Part shown: positions 17,458-27,857 of the stretch, piece after piece | Layout of the letters: every line of letters starts with the position of its first letter | How positions within the stretch are numbered: the first letter of the stretch is position 1 | From: a virus | Lineage: Duplodnaviria; Caudoviricetes | IMG/VR virus record: IMGVR_UViG_2643221936_000002 | Coordinates: 1,699 to 65,698 of that record | DNA length: 64,000 nucleotides | Reading direction: 5' to 3' (one strand) | Notes under the pieces: model-generated | What the model was told of the DNA's origin: nothing | Database searches by the model: none | Seen by the model: the letters and a program-made list of their open reading frames with translations, nothing else | Translations under genes and position numbers: made by a program

Positions 17458-18049
17458 ATTATCTCCTGTTACATTATGGGTATGGGTGGTCGAATGGGGG
17501 CGCAAACGTGCGCCCTCCACAGCTTGCAGAATGCAAGGGAAGCACCATCAAACGGTGATTGAGCATTTGGTGAGGGGCGGCCCCTCAGCCAATATTTCGA
17601 CAGTCAGCTTCGGCGGGTAAGCCGAGGGTTTCCACATCCCGCCAACCGATAAGTGGCTGATGCGAATGTTATCGACGCTCTAGTGTTGACAGCGCGTCCG
17701 TCGTCGATGACCAAAATTTGGGCTAAACCCTACTAGGACGCAAGAGAAATATTTGGATCAAAATTGCTGATAAGCTTGCAATGAGCCCTTGAATACAAGA
17801 TCATCATCTTCTACCGTAGAATTTAGTTCCAGTTATTCACTGTAAACTTGAAGTATGCGCAATATTATTTTTTGCCTTTTTGACATAGAATGAAAAAATG
17901 ATTTTGCAAGAAATAATCCATTTCGGAAAAATAAATTATTTTGCTTGCTGAACGCTTGAGCCTTGGCCCCAGAGCGGCGGTCTTTTGGTCCCGACACGAT
18001 GCAAGACGGCTGGCACCGTCGCAAGCACTGTCGACAAATGCGACCGGTA

Positions 18050-18175: not shown

Positions 18176-18724
18176 ATGACAGGACAGCTCTTTGGGTACG
18201 CGCGCGTATCGACAACGGACCAAGACCTCTCCATTCAAATCGCTGCGCTGAAAGCGGCGGGATGCACTATCGTCCGCGCGGAGAAAAGGACGGGTACCAC
18301 AACAGATGGTCGCGACGAACTCCGGACCTTGATTGATTTCGCACGAAAGGGTGACGGCATCGTTGTCACAAGGATCGACCGCTTGGCGCGATCCATCGCC
18401 GACCTGGCCGCGATAGTCAAAGAACTGGAGATGCGCGGGGTCGCGCTGAAAGCCACAGAGCAACCCATTGACACGTCCTCAGCAGCCGGAAGGGCGTTTC
18501 TCCAGATGCTTGGAGTATTCGCTGAATTCGAGACCTCTATCCGCCGTGAAAGACAGATGGAAGGTATCGCAAAAGCGAAGGCGGAAGGAGCATATAAGGG
18601 GCGTAAGCCCTCTATAGATGCAGAGCGAGTTCTTGGACTGGTGGCGGAAGGCAAGGGCGCTTCTGAGATTGCAAAGGTGCTTGGCATTGGTCGGGCGAGT
18701 GTTTACCGAGTTATTCGGGCTTGA
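18176..18724 (+). CDS. Small serine recombinase (resolvase/invertase)
   Basis: GYARVSTTDQ, VTRIDRLARS, FAEFE...IRRERQMEGI, YKGRKP and C-terminal HTH. Confidence 0.95.
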   Translation: MTGQLFGYARVSTTDQDLSIQIAALKAAGCTIVRAEKRTGTTTDGRDELRTLIDFARKGDGIVVTRIDRLARSIADLAAIVKELEMRGVALKATEQPIDTSSAAGRAFLQMLGVFAEFETSIRRERQMEGIAKAKAEGAYKGRKPSIDAERVLGLVAEGKGASEIAKVLGIGRASVYRVIRA

Positions 18725-19019: not shown

Positions 19020-19796
19020 CTATTTTGTAGGAATTGCTTTCCACTCGTCGTGAGTTACTTGGTGGAAAATTCCCCTAAACACCACCGTTTTTCCGTTCTG
19101 GGGCGTTAACTTTAATTTCATCGGCATCTTGGGCGTGATGGCCCCTCCCAATGGGGCAACGGCTACTCCGTTTACAACTTCACCGTTTTCCATCGTAATC
19201 CCTTTGTTGAATCCCCCCCGGTGCGGCTGTCCTCCGTTCAGGTCAATTTTAACCTCCCCCTCGTCATTGTTCAAAAGAACAAGGAACGTAGGGTTCGGCT
19301 CCATGAGGTGAGAAGCCGAAATCACGATGTCCATTTCAACTGCCGGATTACCTGAATATTTATAGGTGAGATTAGAGAAGCCCATGTGCTGCGGGGTGAA
19401 CGTGTTGTTACCCTGGATGACGTTCACGATCTGAACGATTGCTCCTTCAATCCCATTGGCGAACATATCAATGTAGACATTCTGAAGCAGGACAGGCGGC
19501 ATGGTGGAGCCATCCACGCGAACCGGAATGATCTTGCACTCGCCCTTGGTCGCCTTATAGAGCGCATTCTGCCATTCGAGCTTGACCATGTTGCTCAGAA
19601 GGCTCTTTTCCGAAACAAAGAAAAACACAAAATTCGGTGAAGTCAGTCCTTCATTCATCTTATCAATGATCCCGTCACCGGGTTGAATTGACCAACTGTC
19701 GTAAAATACCTTGTCTTGCCCAAAAATTTCGCGGAGCCGAAGTGCAACCGGCTCGATGACAGGTTTGTCTGCGTGGTTATGACTTAAAAAGATCAT
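19020..19796 (-). CDS. TIR-domain protein (candidate anti-phage)
   Basis: MIFLSHNHADK...VFYDSWSIQPGD...SNMVKLEW (catalytic-position Glu)...IIPVRVD; low GC. Confidence 0.85.
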   Translation of the reverse strand: MIFLSHNHADKPVIEPVALRLREIFGQDKVFYDSWSIQPGDGIIDKMNEGLTSPNFVFFFVSEKSLLSNMVKLEWQNALYKATKGECKIIPVRVDGSTMPPVLLQNVYIDMFANGIEGAIVQIVNVIQGNNTFTPQHMGFSNLTYKYSGNPAVEMDIVISASHLMEPNPTFLVLLNNDEGEVKIDLNGGQPHRGGFNKGITMENGEVVNGVAVAPLGGAITPKMPMKLKLTPQNGKTVVFRGIFHQVTHDEWKAIPTK

Positions 19797-20342: not shown

Positions 20343-20515
20343 TCCACTTGGCACCCGCCGAAAGGCAAACATCCCTCCAAAATCATTACAATCCAATCAG
20401 TTTGATTAAGGAACGCTATTCCATCACCGACATCAAATCCGCCCGGAGGATTCTCAAGAATCCCGATTTCTGCTATATATTTCTCAATAAATTCAGATAG
20501 AAAGCGGAGATTTCA

Positions 20516-20755
20516 ATGCGCCAGACGATCACGAAAATCAGGGGTTTGACGGTTAACGTCGAGATTATCGAAATCCATCAGTCGGACGCGCGCGGCGGCG
20601 TTATTTGGTACCATGCAGCGATCTACGTGCAGCGACACGGGAGCACAAAAAGGAAACTGGTGCGCAAGTCCAGGCTGCCCGGAGCTGCTGCGGAATTACA
20701 GAAGGAGATTCAGCGTGACGGAATTCAGTCGTTCGACCGCATTACACTTCGATAG
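20516..20755 (+). CDS. Hypothetical protein
   Basis: GCGGAG RBS, 79 aa. Confidence 0.55.
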   Translation: MRQTITKIRGLTVNVEIIEIHQSDARGGVIWYHAAIYVQRHGSTKRKLVRKSRLPGAAAELQKEIQRDGIQSFDRITLR

Positions 20756-22443
20756 AACGGCTTGCCTTTCAGCCTATTAACGAGTACGTGCGTACATCGA
20801 AAAAGATGTCGAAAGCTGCGGTCGAAAACGAGCGTTTGCAAAGTGTTACGGCAGAGTGGAGGTTCTCGTCCCTCTCCCGCTACCATCAAAACAGCCGACA
20901 TTTCCGGGCTGACCAAACTCGACAGATATCCCTTTATCTCGATCTGATAGTGCTCTCCGGGCTGACGCTTTGCGACAACCACACCCGCGATGACCTGCCT
21001 GAATGCCTGCGCCAGTTCAATTGACGGCTCGGCTTCCTTCTTAGTCAGTATTTCTGCCAGCGCTTCGACGTTCTGCCTGAAGATGCTGACGGCCTTAGGC
21101 TGGATCTCGATCACGTTTGCCAGCGGCGGTTCGGCTGCAAGTTCCTTTCGCCAGTGATCGCGCTGCGCTCGTAGACCGGGCAAGAGAGCTGCCGCGTCGT
21201 CGTCCTCGATCAATCCCTTCGAAAGCTTTTCGACAATGCGGGTTATGCCGTCCACGGCTTCCTGCAATGATTTCTCGGCCTGCGCTCGCCCTCGGCGCCG
21301 TTCGACTTCCACGCGACGGCGCTCGGCCTGATATTCCTTCACGTAGGCGTCGATGATCGCCGTGTCCGCGAACTGGATGCGGAGGGTGTCAATCACCTGC
21401 CGTTCGATCTTCTCGACGTAGTAACGGCCGTTGTTGTCGCAGCTGCGCGATTCTTTGTGGTTGCTGCAAACCACGCGCGGGCCGCTCCGGTCGGCGCCGA
21501 CGATCGACAATCCCCCACCACATGCACCGCATTTCAGCAGGCCGGATAGCAGGCGTTTGCTCTTGGGCGTCGTCCTGGAATGCTCGCCGCCGCGTTCGGC
21601 CTTCCGGCGCTGTACGATCTCGAACAGGGCGTCGTCGATGATCCGCAGATGCGGGGCGCTGGTCTCCTCGTAATCCGCCTCATCGTTCACGCGCGACACG
21701 CGGCGGCCGGTGGACGGGTCTTTCACCATCCGAACCCTGTTCCAGATAATTTTCCCGGCATAGATCGGATTGCGCAGGATACCGTTCCCCCGCTGGCCGT
21801 TGCCGTTGATCGTCGAGGCGTTCCACTGTGTTCCTCGCGGTGCCGGTACCGATTCGCTGTTCAGCGCGCCCGCGATTGCCCGCGGCGAAAATCCATCCCG
21901 ATACATCTCGAAAATGCGGCGCACCGTGCCGGCCTCGGCTTCCACGATCTCCAGTTCTCCGGGTTTACCGACCGTCGGCGTGTAGCCGTAGGCCTTGCCG
22001 CCAGCGTTACGGCCGGAGCGAACCACGCCAACCATCCCGCGCTTGACCTTCTTCGCGCCTTCCTCTCGCTGCATCTGGCCGATGACGCCATACATTCCGA
22101 CCTGAAGCGTCTCGATCTTTCCGCCGTTGACGCAGTTGATCTCGACTGAACGGAACGTCAGGTTTTTGTGGATGTGGGCGAGGTCGCCGATATCGCGAGA
22201 CAGGCGGTCTGTCGCCTCGGCAATTACCATGTCGAAGGCAGAGAGTTCAGCCGCCTGCATCAGGGCTGACAGACCGGGACGCCCGAACATGGAGGCTCCC
22301 GATTTTGCCCGGTCGTGGTATTCGCTGACGACAGTCACACCAAGGCGGTCGGCATGGGATCGACACACCCGAATCTGATCTTCGACGGACTGGTCGTTCT
22401 GCAGGTCCGTCGAATATCGTGCGTAGATGACCGCTCTCTTCAT
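20725..22443 (-). CDS. int: Large serine recombinase (prophage integrase)
   Basis: YARYST..Q...S..DQ, DRLSRD, recombinase domain (YGY, ILRNPIYAG) and Zn ribbon LLSGLLKCGACG. Confidence 0.95.
   Translation of the reverse strand: MKRAVIYARYSTDLQNDQSVEDQIRVCRSHADRLGVTVVSEYHDRAKSGASMFGRPGLSALMQAAELSAFDMVIAEATDRLSRDIGDLAHIHKNLTFRSVEINCVNGGKIETLQVGMYGVIGQMQREEGAKKVKRGMVGVVRSGRNAGGKAYGYTPTVGKPGELEIVEAEAGTVRRIFEMYRDGFSPRAIAGALNSESVPAPRGTQWNASTINGNGQRGNGILRNPIYAGKIIWNRVRMVKDPSTGRRVSRVNDEADYEETSAPHLRIIDDALFEIVQRRKAERGGEHSRTTPKSKRLLSGLLKCGACGGGLSIVGADRSGPRVVCSNHKESRSCDNNGRYYVEKIERQVIDTLRIQFADTAIIDAYVKEYQAERRRVEVERRRGRAQAEKSLQEAVDGITRIVEKLSKGLIEDDDAAALLPGLRAQRDHWRKELAAEPPLANVIEIQPKAVSIFRQNVEALAEILTKKEAEPSIELAQAFRQVIAGVVVAKRQPGEHYQIEIKGYLSSLVSPEMSAVLMVAGEGREPPLCRNTLQTLVFDRSFRHLFRCTHVLVNRLKGKPFYRSVMRSND
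20858..20885 (+). other. tRNA-3'-end-like sequence, probable prophage att junction
   Basis: GGAGGTTCTCGTCCCTCTCCCGCTACCA (degenerate T-arm, acceptor strand, CCA) inside the 3' end of the serine integrase ORF. Confidence 0.55.
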
Positions 22444-24313: not shown

Positions 24314-24646
24314 TCATTCAATCTGTCCGTAGATGAATGTGGTCAGCTTCCTTGTGGGGCCGATTGTCGTATCAGCTTCGAAAATAAGCCATTGTTCACC
24401 GCGCTCGGGTGCATGGTGATAGGTGTTCGACGAAGCGAAGCCCGTTGCGCACAGTTCCAATAATGCACGCATCACGTGGAGCGACACAGTCGGCTCATCG
24501 GTCTCGAAGTGTTTGATAATGTGCGACAGCAGTGCTTCATAGGCTACCGGTTCAATCCGCGTTGCTATGAACCTGATCACCTCGGCCAGAACCGCTGCCT
24601 TGCTTTCCGGTGCGAGTTCGCCGCCTTGTTCGCAGACCAGGGTCAT
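24314..24646 (-). CDS. Phage hypothetical protein
   Basis: ATGA overlap with the antirepressor stop. Confidence 0.6.
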   Translation of the reverse strand: MTLVCEQGGELAPESKAAVLAEVIRFIATRIEPVAYEALLSHIIKHFETDEPTVSLHVMRALLELCATGFASSNTYHHAPERGEQWLIFEADTTIGPTRKLTTFIYGQIE

Positions 24647-25515
24647 AGCAGCGTCTCCGTCAACTGGCGTTGAACAAGGGCGATGACACTGGTCGGCCAC
24701 ATGATCTGCTTGACGGGCCGGCCCTTAAAATCCTTCTTGCCGGTGTCGAAGATATCGCCGCCGGCGGCGCGACCCGCGTCAGTCAAATCCCAATAGGCGA
24801 TCCGCATCTTGCCGGGGCGCTTACCTGGAATGCGGTGCGCCGCTTGAAGGCCGAGCTTTTCAAGGATCAGGTTCACCTCGTTCTCCGTTTTGGTTGGGTC
24901 AGTCCGCTCGCCGACCGAAGTGGAGTTGATGAACTGCTGGGAAATATCAGCCTTCAGATGTGTTACGCCGGTAAGTTCGAGCACATTCACCCCGGTCTCG
25001 CGTTGGGTTGCCATTGCTGCCGAAAGCGCACGCTGATTGCCTTTCAGGCCGAGCAGCCCTGCGAGACGACTGAAACCATGCATGACGTCGCCGACGGTCT
25101 TGAGCTTCTTTGAGAGAGGCAAGCGCGACACGTCTATCGCGCCTTCTTGTGCGGCAAAATAGACGTCTACCATATCGCCCTGGACTTCCCACGCCCGATC
25201 GTCATTCATCGGCTTGGTCAGCTTGAGGTATCCGCGTTCAGTCAAAACGTTGGCCCGCGCTGTCCTCGAAGGGAAAATACCCAACTGCGACATCGTACGT
25301 ATTTCGTCCGATGTCAGACTGTGGAAATCCGCGCCTTCGACAAACCGGTCACGGTTTTCGTTGAAAGTGCGACGGGCTGTGTCGTCTGGCCGCTGGTGTA
25401 TTTCATCGACCTGAGACATCGTGACGATCGGCTCGCCGCGATAGGTGATGCGCTTAACATCGACCCCACCGATTGAAACCGTAGGCATAAGTGTGCTACT
25501 GGACTGGCTGTCCAT
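24643..25515 (-). CDS. ORF6N/KilA-N antirepressor-like protein
   Basis: ITYRGEPIVTMSQVDEIHQRP..TARRTFNENRDRFVEGADF...LTERGYLKLTKPMNDDRAWEVQ..MVDVYF. Confidence 0.85.
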   Translation of the reverse strand: MDSQSSSTLMPTVSIGGVDVKRITYRGEPIVTMSQVDEIHQRPDDTARRTFNENRDRFVEGADFHSLTSDEIRTMSQLGIFPSRTARANVLTERGYLKLTKPMNDDRAWEVQGDMVDVYFAAQEGAIDVSRLPLSKKLKTVGDVMHGFSRLAGLLGLKGNQRALSAAMATQRETGVNVLELTGVTHLKADISQQFINSTSVGERTDPTKTENEVNLILEKLGLQAAHRIPGKRPGKMRIAYWDLTDAGRAAGGDIFDTGKKDFKGRPVKQIMWPTSVIALVQRQLTETLL

Positions 25516-25630
25516 TTCGGCATCCTCATTGTTGAAACTGGCATTCCGATTTCCGCGCTACGAACGCGGCAGTCATTTCGAGAACGGCTATCGAGGCGGG
25601 CTGGCACCCGATTCGGTGGCCGTTTTCATC

Positions 25631-25846
25631 TTAGGCTAACCCTGCTTTTTCAGATGCGCAGGAAATTTCGTTGTCATTCCTTCCAACGCTTTGAAATTTG
25701 ATCATTCTTTCCCGCACGGCACGAATGATTTCGCTGTTCTGCGAGCTGCCATTTTGCTCTGCCTGCTGGTCGAGGAAGAGCCTCACGTCATCGGGCAGCC
25801 GGAACGTGGTCTTTATCTTTTGGCTCTGGATACGATCGGACCGCAT
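25631..25846 (-). CDS. Arc-family ribbon-helix-helix regulator
   Basis: TTFRLPDDVRLFLDQQAEQNGSSQNSEIIRAV. Confidence 0.85.
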   Translation of the reverse strand: MRSDRIQSQKIKTTFRLPDDVRLFLDQQAEQNGSSQNSEIIRAVRERMIKFQSVGRNDNEISCASEKAGLA

Positions 25847-25872
25847 CTATTAATCCTTTGTTAGGAAGAGAA

Positions 25873-25951
25873 TGGCATGATGCCATCACGTCCGCAAGTA
25901 GCTGGCATAGTGCCATCATTTATTTTCTGTGGACATGGCATTATGGTATCA
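25873..25951. promoter_or_regulatory. Three palindromic operators between divergent Arc genes
   Basis: TGGCATGATGCCATCA (25873), TGGCATAGTGCCATCA (25903), TGGCATTATGGTATCA (25936). Confidence 0.75.
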
Positions 25952-25954
25952 CTT

Positions 25955-26365
25955 ATGGCTGTCTCTCTTGCAAAAGACCTCGACAAGTTTGTGCTGCGCC
26001 TCCCATCAGGGTTGCGGGATCGCATCAAAGTCGTGGCCGAGGAAAACAACCGCTCTATGAATGCGGAAATTGTTGCCACGCTTGAAGTGAAATATCCGGA
26101 AGTCGCGTTTGACGTCGGGGCGTTCATGACTGATTGGATGATCCCAATCCTGCGAGCGACGTCCAGCGCGGGCCGAAGGGCGACTGTCGGCGCGGCGAAC
26201 GCGTATCTCGACAAGAACAACCCGGGCATGTTCGTGGAGCTTTTGGAGGATGACGATCGTCGCCCGCAGGTCGTGTTAAACTCTAATGGCGCTCGGATCA
26301 TGGTGTCTGAGCCTCCGGCGCCGCAGCAGCCAGCAAAAGAGAATGAAGAAACGCCTGAAGAGTAG
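25955..26365 (+). CDS. Arc/Mnt-family regulator with C-terminal extension
   Basis: DKFVLRLPSGLRDRIKVVAEENNRSMNAEIVATLE. Confidence 0.85.
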   Translation: MAVSLAKDLDKFVLRLPSGLRDRIKVVAEENNRSMNAEIVATLEVKYPEVAFDVGAFMTDWMIPILRATSSAGRRATVGAANAYLDKNNPGMFVELLEDDDRRPQVVLNSNGARIMVSEPPAPQQPAKENEETPEE

Positions 26366-26681: not shown

Positions 26682-26732
26682 AACATAACGAATGATTTTT
26701 CAGCCGTCAATCTTCACGACTGAAATATCATT
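26682..26732 (-). promoter_or_regulatory. PL-like promoter with two operators
   Basis: TTGACG-N17-TATGTT on minus; operators AATGATTTTTCAGC (26691) and ACTGAAATATCATT (26719) match those between cI and cro. Confidence 0.7.
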
Positions 26733-27495
26733 CGCCATCTGAAATTTCCCGTTCCACCCTGATGAGGACGCCGAAAACGCGCACTTGCCCGTCGTGGATG
26801 TGATAACGGTTCGGATCCCCGTCGATGCCTTCATCTGTGACATCGGCTAGTTCAATTGTGATCGATCTAGATTTCACGGCGTTTTCGTCGGCGTTGCCGA
26901 TCAAAAAGCTGATCCTGCGGCCATCGTTGGACACATACCTCACACTGATCTCAAATATGCCATGCGCCACTCGGCGCTTTACGCCTACAAGCATACCGTT
27001 CCGAAGTGGGATGGCTTCCTTGGGGTCTTTGGGATGGGCGAACGTAAGAATATCGCCTTTGATGATATGGAAGCTTGAAAACGAATCGTCGCCCATCGTC
27101 GATGCGGACGTGTCCCAATTGGCGTACTTCCTACTGGGTCGCACATACGTGTGAAGAAGTGCCTTGCTCAACCCGGAACGGAAGACCTCGTCTTCTTGAT
27201 AAATGCCCACTTGGAGAGACCCGACGATGGGAACCCGCGCCGGCCCCATTCTTGGAATGTCATCGGCTGCAGGCTGCTTATCCGGTGCGTCTGTAGCTCC
27301 CACTAGGAACGCGAGCGTGCAGTCCAGCACCACAGCAAGCTTCTCAAGGGTAGCGAGGCGGGGGCTTCCAGAATTCCCAGAGAGAATATCTGTGATAGCA
27401 GAGCGCCCTAGGCCCGCCTCTAGCGAGGCTCCGGCGGCGCTTTTCCCGATTTCTTCGAGGCGATTTTTTATTCGATTAGCGAGTTCGTTTTCCAT
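26728..27495 (-). CDS. cI: CI-like repressor (XRE HTH plus S24-like C-terminal domain)
   Basis: KSAAGASLEAGLGRSAITDILSG..SPRLATLEKLA HTH; VPIVG linker; divergent from cro. Confidence 0.85.
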   Translation of the reverse strand: MENELANRIKNRLEEIGKSAAGASLEAGLGRSAITDILSGNSGSPRLATLEKLAVVLDCTLAFLVGATDAPDKQPAADDIPRMGPARVPIVGSLQVGIYQEDEVFRSGLSKALLHTYVRPSRKYANWDTSASTMGDDSFSSFHIIKGDILTFAHPKDPKEAIPLRNGMLVGVKRRVAHGIFEISVRYVSNDGRRISFLIGNADENAVKSRSITIELADVTDEGIDGDPNRYHIHDGQVRVFGVLIRVEREISDGE

Positions 27496-27602
27496 GGCTG
27501 ATTTATCCGACACAATCTCTGAAAAAGCCAGACTGATTTTTCAGTCGAACGGTTTACAGGCGAATGATTTATCAGTATGTTTAACGGATGGAAAACGAAC
27601 TC
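27481..27602. repeat. Perfect 15-bp inverted repeat formed by the first five codons of cI and cro
   Basis: 27481-27495 GAGTTCGTTTTCCAT is the reverse complement of 27588-27602 ATGGAAAACGAACTC. Confidence 0.95.
27496..27587. promoter_or_regulatory. OR region: PR (TTTACA-N17-TATGTT) and three TGATTTWTC operators
   Basis: Operators at 27497, 27532, 27563. The -10 ends 6 nt before the cro ATG with no Shine-Dalgarno, suggesting a leaderless mRNA. Confidence 0.75.
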
Positions 27603-27857
27603 CGCAAAATCTTGCTCACTACAGCCAGCGAATTCGCGAGCGTCGAACGCTGTGCAATCTCAACAGTTTCCCGCCGCGTTAAGAACGACGCGACGTTTTT
27701 CACCCGCATCGCAGACAAGTCGAAAAGTTTCACCGCAAGAACCTTCGACGAGGTCATGCTGTGGTTCGCTGAAAACTGGCCAGCCGACCAGCAGAGGCCG
27801 CTCGATCTTATGAAATGGATGGCGGATGTGGGATTCCGTCCAGCGGTGTCTGCATGA
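27588..27857 (+). CDS. cro: Cro-like regulator
   Basis: AISTVSRRVKNDATFFTRI...FTARTFDEVMLWFAENWP; position opposite cI. Confidence 0.75.
   Translation: MENELRKILLTTASEFASVERCAISTVSRRVKNDATFFTRIADKSKSFTARTFDEVMLWFAENWPADQQRPLDLMKWMADVGFRPAVSA

Follow-up and report, generated by a model that had tools for sequence, protein, structure and literature searches.

We analysed a 64,000-nucleotide stretch of DNA (hereafter the window) from an IMG/VR provirus record (IMGVR_UViG_2643221936_000002), which has the same sequence as a contig from Rhizobium sp. Leaf453 (L003). Its subject of interest is a pair of divergent genes, encoding a cI-like repressor on the minus strand and a cro-like protein on the plus strand, whose starts together form a perfect inverted repeat. 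The repeat has arms of 15 nucleotides (nt) at 27481-27495 and 27588-27602, separated by a spacer of 92 nt. Both open reading frames, the minus-strand one from 27495 and the plus-strand one from 27588, begin with ATGGAAAACGAACTC (MENEL), and the initial annotation, which had reported a shared 15-nt start with synonymous positions included, is thereby confirmed from the sequence. The arms diverge at nt 16 (G versus C), as do their inner flanks, which sets the length of the repeat at exactly 15 nt. The features of the locus are the following.

26728-27495, minus strand: repressor (cI-like) gene, 255 amino acids (aa) from the ATG at 27495, with an N-terminal HTH_3 domain and a C-terminal part that is weakly LexA S24-like
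27481-27495, minus strand: left arm, the first five codons of the repressor gene (MENEL)
27498-27509: operator-like O3, a near-palindromic 12-mer with one mismatch to CTGATWWWTCAG, 2 nt from the repressor ATG
27501-27506, minus strand: candidate -10 of PRM (putative), ATAAAT inside O3, 5 nt before the repressor ATG
27533-27544: operator-like O2, matching CTGATWWWTCAG without mismatch and centred about 43.5 nt upstream of the repressor ATG
27553-27581, plus strand: PR, with -35 TTTACA, a 17-nt spacer and -10 TATGTT, ending 6 nt before the cro-like ATG
27564-27575: operator-like O1, a 12-mer within the PR spacer
27588-27602, plus strand: right arm, the first five codons of the cro-like gene (MENEL)
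27588-27857, plus strand: cro-like gene, 89 aa, first gene of the rightward early operon, phrog_7669

A search for inverted pairs (seed 12, minimum 14, at most 300 nt apart) returned four in the window, among which this 15-nt pair was the sole perfect one. With up to two mismatches the 15-mer was found at just these two sites in the window (0.13 expected), and with up to one mismatch at just these two sites in the 6.4-Mb host genome (G001); having no other copies in the host genome, it is therefore not a dispersed repeat. When 300 sequences of 64 kb were simulated with the dinucleotide frequencies of the window, 10 held a perfect 15-nt inverted repeat within 300 nt. Such a repeat is unusual for a single window and common across a large scan.

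In a promoter scan PR was the single sigma-70-like site called in 27300-27800 (0.1 expected). Matches to CTGATWWWTCAG with at most one mismatch numbered nine by strand across the whole window, at six distinct sites (1.42 expected), all of them within 25.6-27.6 kb. These promoter and motif scans bear out the earlier description of three operators and PR within 92 bp, with the -10 ending 6 nt from the cro ATG. The same description had neither gene carrying a Shine-Dalgarno (SD) sequence, and this too was upheld, with none of the tetramers GGAG, GAGG, AGGA or AAGG found 3-12 nt before either ATG in the window. The layout of divergent repressor and cro-position genes, 92 nt apart in the window, is kept in 29 distinct loci (see below), over which the gap measures 83-119 nt and is mostly 92-98 nt. 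An O3-equivalent site adjoins the repressor ATG in relatives, and hexamers of the GATAAA or GATATT type lie 6-7 nt before the repressor ATG in many of them.

The repressor carries an HTH_3 domain (Pfam, E-value 2e-07) and matches transcriptional regulator and repressor families in PHROG. Positions 126-217 matched LexA weakly in a profile search of the PDB (E-value 0.0016), and the C-terminal part gave no Pfam S24 match at an E-value of 0.01. Seventeen homologues were found in the databases, of which the eight closest open M[EK][NH][ED]L, four distant ones begin with MEN followed by other residues and five open differently. Among these homologues the serine of GD(D)S, a motif characteristic of LexA-like domains (residues 136-138 of the window protein), is invariant, and the position of the expected catalytic lysine (residue ~170) varies between K, R, Q, G, A and C. 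On account of this variable position, many of these repressors may be incapable of self-cleavage.

The initial annotation had also raised the worry that the repressor starts at an upstream GTG (27513). This was not borne out. The GTG falls within operator O3, the gene call in the database is the 255-aa form starting at ATG, and 8 of the 29 loci (L004, L006, L007, L009, L012, L015, L058 and L059), the closest relative L009 among them, have no in-frame upstream repressor start.

The cro-like protein belongs to phrog_7669, a family of unknown function (PHROG E-value 8.1e-16), and has no Pfam match. Its AlphaFold2 model (predicted local distance difference test score, pLDDT, 91.3) consists of five helices, the first spanning residues 2-20. 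Foldseek found nothing in the PDB at an E-value of 0.001 or better for this model (template modelling scores 0.44-0.53, E-values of 0.7 or worse), and the top matches, non-significant as they are, were to the XRE-type controller protein C.Esp1396I. A VIA wide search with the model (Z 4.2-6.9) returned many lambda-repressor-like domains among unrelated helical proteins, and the sequence profile gave nothing below an E-value of 0.84 in the PDB, with no significant match to Cro proteins. We therefore use 'cro' as a name by position; DNA binding by the product is plausible. The gene is followed by a DUF1376/primosomal gene and then a primase-helicase gene, the usual location in an early rightward operon. 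Among 40 database homologues of the protein, M1 and E2 are invariant and 28 start with MENEL. Matches in the phage database were few: three distant ones for the cro-like protein (two being copies of one phage, AmM-1) and one distant one for the repressor, in two copies of RR1-A.

Gene starts in related loci

The related loci came from collections of genomes, viruses and metagenomes, from 400 genomes of the host's family that were scored (39 with a cro-like match) and from Agrobacterium phage Rivra. Copies were dropped (L003 and L020 are the window, L014 and L022 are L005, L055 is L054 and L057 is L017) and the distant loci L027-L049 were set aside, leaving 29 distinct loci, the window included, with a divergent repressor gene.

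The cro-like gene opens in a nearly uniform way across the 29 loci: ATGGAA is found in all of them, ATGGAAAA in 18 and the full 15-mer in 6. Repressor genes are more varied, with ATGGAA in 11 and ATGGAAAA in 10, the other starts being MNDIV, MSTLA, MSDQN, MADLA and others. Both genes of the same locus carry ATGGAAAA in 9 of the 29, and a match over 15 of 15 positions within a locus occurs in the window alone. The exact run from the ATG extends to 11 nt in L011 and L012, to 8-9 nt in L007, L008, L013 and L017, and to 7 nt or fewer in the other 22, so that runs of at least 11 nt are counted in 3 of the 29 loci and runs of at least 8 nt in 7.

Over nt 4-15 a repressor start agrees with the cro start of its own locus at 5.41 of 12 positions and with those of other loci at 5.05 of 12, and over nt 16-27 identity is 3.2 of 12 both within and between loci. 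Identity at nt 4-15 above the level of nt 16-27 points to a family-level likeness of the first five codons; judged from the sequences, the two gene families resemble each other there as families and not as co-evolving partners. Co-variation of the first codons of cI/cro pairs, a check proposed with the initial annotation, amounted to a marginal within-locus excess of 0.36 nt of 12 (permutation p = 0.028, or 0.053 without the window, which had been picked for its match).

Perfect identity over nt 4-15 was also found between the genes of different phages, in 6 of 812 cross-phage pairs of repressor and cro starts. The repressor start of the window equals the cro starts of L008, L012, L017, L021 and L058, and the repressor start of L009 equals the cro start of L011. 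From this cross-phage rate about 0.2 perfect within-phage matches would be expected among the 29 loci, and one was found. A chance of roughly 4^-12, as first put forward for the shared start, thus used the wrong null, given the 10 of 300 simulations and these cross-phage pairs. Compared with its closest relative, L009 (59% protein identity), the repressor start of the window differs by one synonymous base, GAA versus GAG at codon 4. With both starts at the consensus of their families, the match in the window is therefore perfect. The repeat is probably neither maintained as a pair nor a recombination site.

The starts of both genes are rich in A. The fraction of A at nt 4-12 is 0.57 in cro and 0.46 in the repressor gene, as against 0.22-0.24 in the rest of the genes, and glutamate at cro codon 2 is encoded by GAA in 29 of 29 loci, compared with 281 of 605 glutamate codons (46%) elsewhere in the 58 genes. 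The start codon is ATG for cro in all 29 loci and for the repressor in 28. In 27 of the 29 loci no SD-like motif precedes cro, and among the 19 loci that were scored the hexamers most similar to a -10 are placed 5-10 nt ahead of the cro ATG. Five repressor genes with GGAG or AGGA 4-7 nt upstream (L005, L015, L053, L058 and L059), grouped post hoc, contain only 2-3 A at these positions (nt 4-12). Folding of the first 50 nt of either predicted mRNA is no more stable than that of shuffled sequences and leaves the AUG unpaired. The mRNAs of the two divergent genes are probably leaderless or nearly so.

Taken together, we consider it likely that the locus is a lambda-type immunity switch of a Rhizobium prophage, in which the repeat reflects the coincidence of two family-typical, A-rich and probably leaderless gene starts. 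PR and a weak PRM would be placed back to back in the 92-nt spacer with the three operators, O1 sitting inside the spacer of PR, O2 some 43 nt from the repressor ATG on its upstream side and O3 over the PRM -10. The cro-like gene of the family almost always opens with ATGGAAAACGAACTY (MENEL), and one repressor subfamily opens MEN[ED]L. The A-rich starts of both genes may result from selection for an accessible region around a 5'-terminal AUG, and in both proteins an amphipathic first helix would follow directly at the N terminus. The phage studied here would simply happen to carry the family consensus in both genes, with a perfect match as the outcome. The sequences show the repeat, the gene starts across the family, their lack of co-variation and richness in A, and the matches to promoter and operators; where transcription begins, whether the operators function and why the starts are rich in A is what we infer from them. 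The proposal, made with the initial annotation, that identical 5' ends equalise the translation of two leaderless mRNAs comes close to this explanation.

Several points weigh against this interpretation. The leaderless part has promoter geometry and absent SD motifs as its whole basis, and the consensus promoter scan called no minus-strand promoter at PRM. A-rich second codons are common in bacterial genes generally, which makes the bias non-specific to leaderless mRNAs. In a comparison set beforehand, repressor starts with an SD motif (9 loci) had a mean of 3.4 A among the 9 positions and those without (20 loci) a mean of 4.4, a non-significant difference (one-sided p = 0.066); this split is noisy since the operators themselves carry GGA or AGGA, and it serves as no more than a hint. 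Start codons of the relatives were picked by hand, from protein alignments and from the operator adjoining the repressor start, and because the 29 loci are kin, a count such as 29 of 29 does not stand for 29 independent events. Finally, the within-locus excess, small but above zero, could reflect weak homogenisation of the two starts and not a shared ancestry of the pairs.

Alternative origins of the repeat

The likeness of the two N termini could belong to the proteins only, either by common descent of two helix-turn-helix (HTH) domains or through the same requirement for a first helix from residue 2, with no selection at the RNA level. We regard this as unlikely, although the five-helix model of the cro-like protein with its first helix at residues 2-20 agrees with it, as does the presence of many XRE and lambda-repressor-like domains among the best, weak fold matches. 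Distant members of the family again share helix starts of the M-x-L-K type: both genes of the distant loci open with similar short amphipathic helices, and the L027 repressor and the L029 cro-like protein both begin MDLKT. Set against this, a profile-profile comparison of the repressor and cro-like families was non-significant (probability 1%, E-value 0.056), with an alignment running through MENEL alone, and gives common descent of the two families no support. A requirement at the protein level only also leaves the use of GAA at 29 of 29 second codons, against 46% elsewhere, unexplained.

There is little to recommend a second possibility, in which the arms act in RNA or as a shared site, either through a stem in read-through transcripts that hides the AUG, so that translation would be confined to leaderless transcripts, or as the target of one trans-acting factor on both mRNAs; the latter was among the alternatives offered by the initial annotation. 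In either orientation, RNA of 27471-27612 folds into a long stem (-44 and -45.5 kcal/mol, z -4.8 and -4.7 for the two strands); the leaderless 5' ends by themselves form no structure, and in 9 of the 29 loci the two genes have ATGGAAAA in common. A 15-bp stem is, however, an automatic consequence of the repeat. The pairing is not kept up in relatives, in which a mean of 5.4 of 12 positions are identical with no compensatory pattern, no promoter for read-through was identified at the locus and no candidate factor is known.

Slightly less probable again is a recent gene conversion or template switch that copied one 5' end onto the other and left a functionless scar, as the initial annotation had also proposed. 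Identity at all synonymous positions with a sharp stop after codon 5 would fit such an event, and so would a within-locus identity slightly above that between loci. The event is nevertheless superfluous, as both starts sit at the family consensus: the cro start of the window is the commonest 15-mer of its family (6 of 29), the repressor start is a single synonymous base away from that of L009, and perfect matches also occur between the genes of different phages.

The initial annotation put forward an invertible genetic switch, in which recombination between the arms flips the 92-nt promoter/operator block, placing PR on the repressor gene and leaving both proteins unchanged. The exchange, by a recombinase or some other mechanism, would also place PRM on cro. 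The perfect arms do flank this block exactly, both genes would remain translatable after a flip as they are predicted to have no leaders, and a small serine recombinase gene (18176-18724) lies in the same window. Against it, the repeat is perfect in 1 of the 29 loci, with runs of at least 11 nt in 3 and of 0-9 nt in the rest; 28 of the 29 loci do without a perfect repeat, and the switch of this family therefore works without it. The arms show no meaningful co-variation. Where they are recognisable by eye in relatives, the operator at the repressor ATG and the -10 at cro are always on the same sides. Moreover, 15 nt are too short for efficient homologous recombination, and the 92-bp segment is, to our knowledge, shorter than any invertible segment described.

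The orientation of the block was also followed in assembled contigs. Isolate run X1 carries the whole stretch in the reference orientation at a depth of 208 with no differences, and isolate run X2 carries it in the same orientation at a depth of 89 with one difference, at 27109; both runs may be the source of the window DNA. A 151-nt soil-metagenome contig (X4, matching 27406-27556) spans the left arm, again in the reference orientation. No flipped orientation was found in the contigs of X1, X2 and X4 and no joints were reported, contigs showing the majority form only; as contigs drop rare variants, this evidence leaves some room for rare inversion. No invertible cI/cro block was described in the text that a literature search brought up. 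In view of the single perfect repeat, the lack of meaningful co-variation and contigs in one orientation only, we regard a genetic switch operating by inversion as highly improbable, and hold it equally hard to credit that the perfect arms permit an occasional inversion in this prophage, swapping PR and PRM and locking a subpopulation of lysogens into the other immunity state.

The resolvase/invertase-type gene that had been pointed to as a possible partner lies 9 kb off, beside a TIR-domain gene and within a candidate 30-nt inverted repeat of its own; nothing ties it to the switch, and it was rejected as a partner. The small serine recombinase (Resolvase and HTH_7 domains) adjoins a large serine recombinase and the TIR-domain gene (19020-19796), the latter with weak PADLOC matches to PDC-S66 and TIR-NLR. 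The candidate inverted repeat (17897-17926 and 20358-20387) is 30 nt long, 70% complementary and perfect in its outer 10 nt, and brackets the recombinase and TIR genes. The segment 17897-20387 could be an invertible or mobile defence cassette within the prophage. The large serine recombinase (20725-22443, minus strand) has Resolvase, Recombinase and Zn_ribbon_recom domains and is probably the integrase of the prophage.

A resemblance of the arms to the operators was considered and dropped, the half-sites of this phage being of the CTGAT type as against ATGGA in the arms.

Genomic setting and comparison with known systems

Beyond the spacer, three of the six matches to CTGATWWWTCAG lie to the left.

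26692-26703 and 26720-26731: further operator-like 12-mers, one mismatch to CTGATWWWTCAG, at the 3' end of the repressor gene
25642-25653: sixth operator-like 12-mer, one mismatch to CTGATWWWTCAG, about 1 kb further left

They may constitute an OL-type set for the leftward early genes, perhaps looping to the right operator. Two genes to the left of the repressor gene, one with an ORF6N domain (24643-25515, minus strand) and one of the Arc-like ribbon-helix-helix kind (25877-26365, plus strand), may form a module of the antirepressor type (24643-26365).

In the related loci L004-L026 and L050-L061, each phage has its own operator half-sites around a common GGA...TCC core, and the three-site layout and its spacing are kept; these spacers look like a heteroimmune switch family built on one scaffold. 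In many relatives with diverged operators, TTAAC or TTAA is found again immediately behind the -10-like hexamer and within the last 6-10 nt before the cro-like ATG (for example in L007, L009, L011, L012 and L017, and at 27582-27586 in the window), and could be a discriminator or start-site element. The loci L027-L049 represent a more distant branch of cro-like genes beside a divergent XRE-type gene, with a -10-like hexamer just before the ATG and a gap of mostly 86-99 nt, reaching 121 nt in L029. A handful of cro-like loci were named outside Rhizobium, in Agrobacterium phage Rivra, Aurantimonas phage AmM-1 and a Pseudaminobacter soli genome.

We thus read the locus as a lambda-like immunity switch of the ordinary kind, from a Rhizobiales family that has been little studied; the reading as an invertible switch is unsupported. 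The case carries a caution, in that perfect inverted repeats around a promoter can arise from two divergent leaderless genes with A-rich, family-typical first codons, and screens for invertible elements that are based on repeats will falsely flag such sites. It also delineates a widespread, uncharacterised switch composed of an XRE-type repressor, a phrog_7669 protein in the cro position and a tightly conserved control region of 83-119 nt, probably with two leaderless mRNAs, which could suit the study of leaderless translation signals in alphaproteobacteria.

Invertons of the kind detected by PhaseFinder share with the window the presence of inverted repeats around a promoter-bearing segment (here 15-nt arms flanking PR and the operators). 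Unlike in invertons, the arms of the window are coding 5' ends that are kept in few relatives, the segment measures 92 nt, no cognate recombinase is adjacent and no second orientation was seen in the window contigs.

Agrobacterium phage Rivra (PV764937.1) resembles the window in that the gene annotated as 'repressor protein CI' runs divergently from one whose product is homologous to the cro-like protein (44.6% identity, 65 aa), and in a TATAAG hexamer that ends 6 nt before an ATGGAA start. Its repressor differs in opening MSKLQ, with nothing shared beyond the ATG. The deposited cro-like gene of Rivra (L050, 2456-2743), labelled hypothetical, is 45 nt longer, extending upstream of the conserved ATGGAA, and the annotation leaves just 11 nt between the cro-like and CI genes; the family alignment suggests that both Rivra starts are mis-set there.

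A close likeness in organisation is to the right operator region of lambda (cI, cro, OR1-3, PR/PRM), which equally has divergent repressor and cro-position genes, three operators and back-to-back promoters. As in lambda, the centre of one operator is about 43 nt from the repressor start on the upstream side, a position at which an activating contact is plausible, and the repressor has an N-terminal HTH, followed in the window by a C-terminal part that matches LexA weakly. Unlike in lambda, the operator centres are 31-35 nt apart and not adjacent, the catalytic lysine position of the S24-like domain is unconserved among homologues of the repressor, and the gene in the cro position, whose phrog_7669 product has no significant match to Cro, appears to be leaderless as well. 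A leaderless repressor mRNA, predicted for the window, is shared with lambda, whose cI is cited as leaderless in PMC4488713.

The telomere phage PY54 differs from the window in being an enterobacterial linear-plasmid prophage, and shared first codons are not reported in the portion of PMC4488713 consulted. Its immB region corresponds to the layout predicted here in that both the cI and the cro mRNAs are leaderless and start at the AUG, as mapped by rapid amplification of cDNA ends (RACE) in the same paper.

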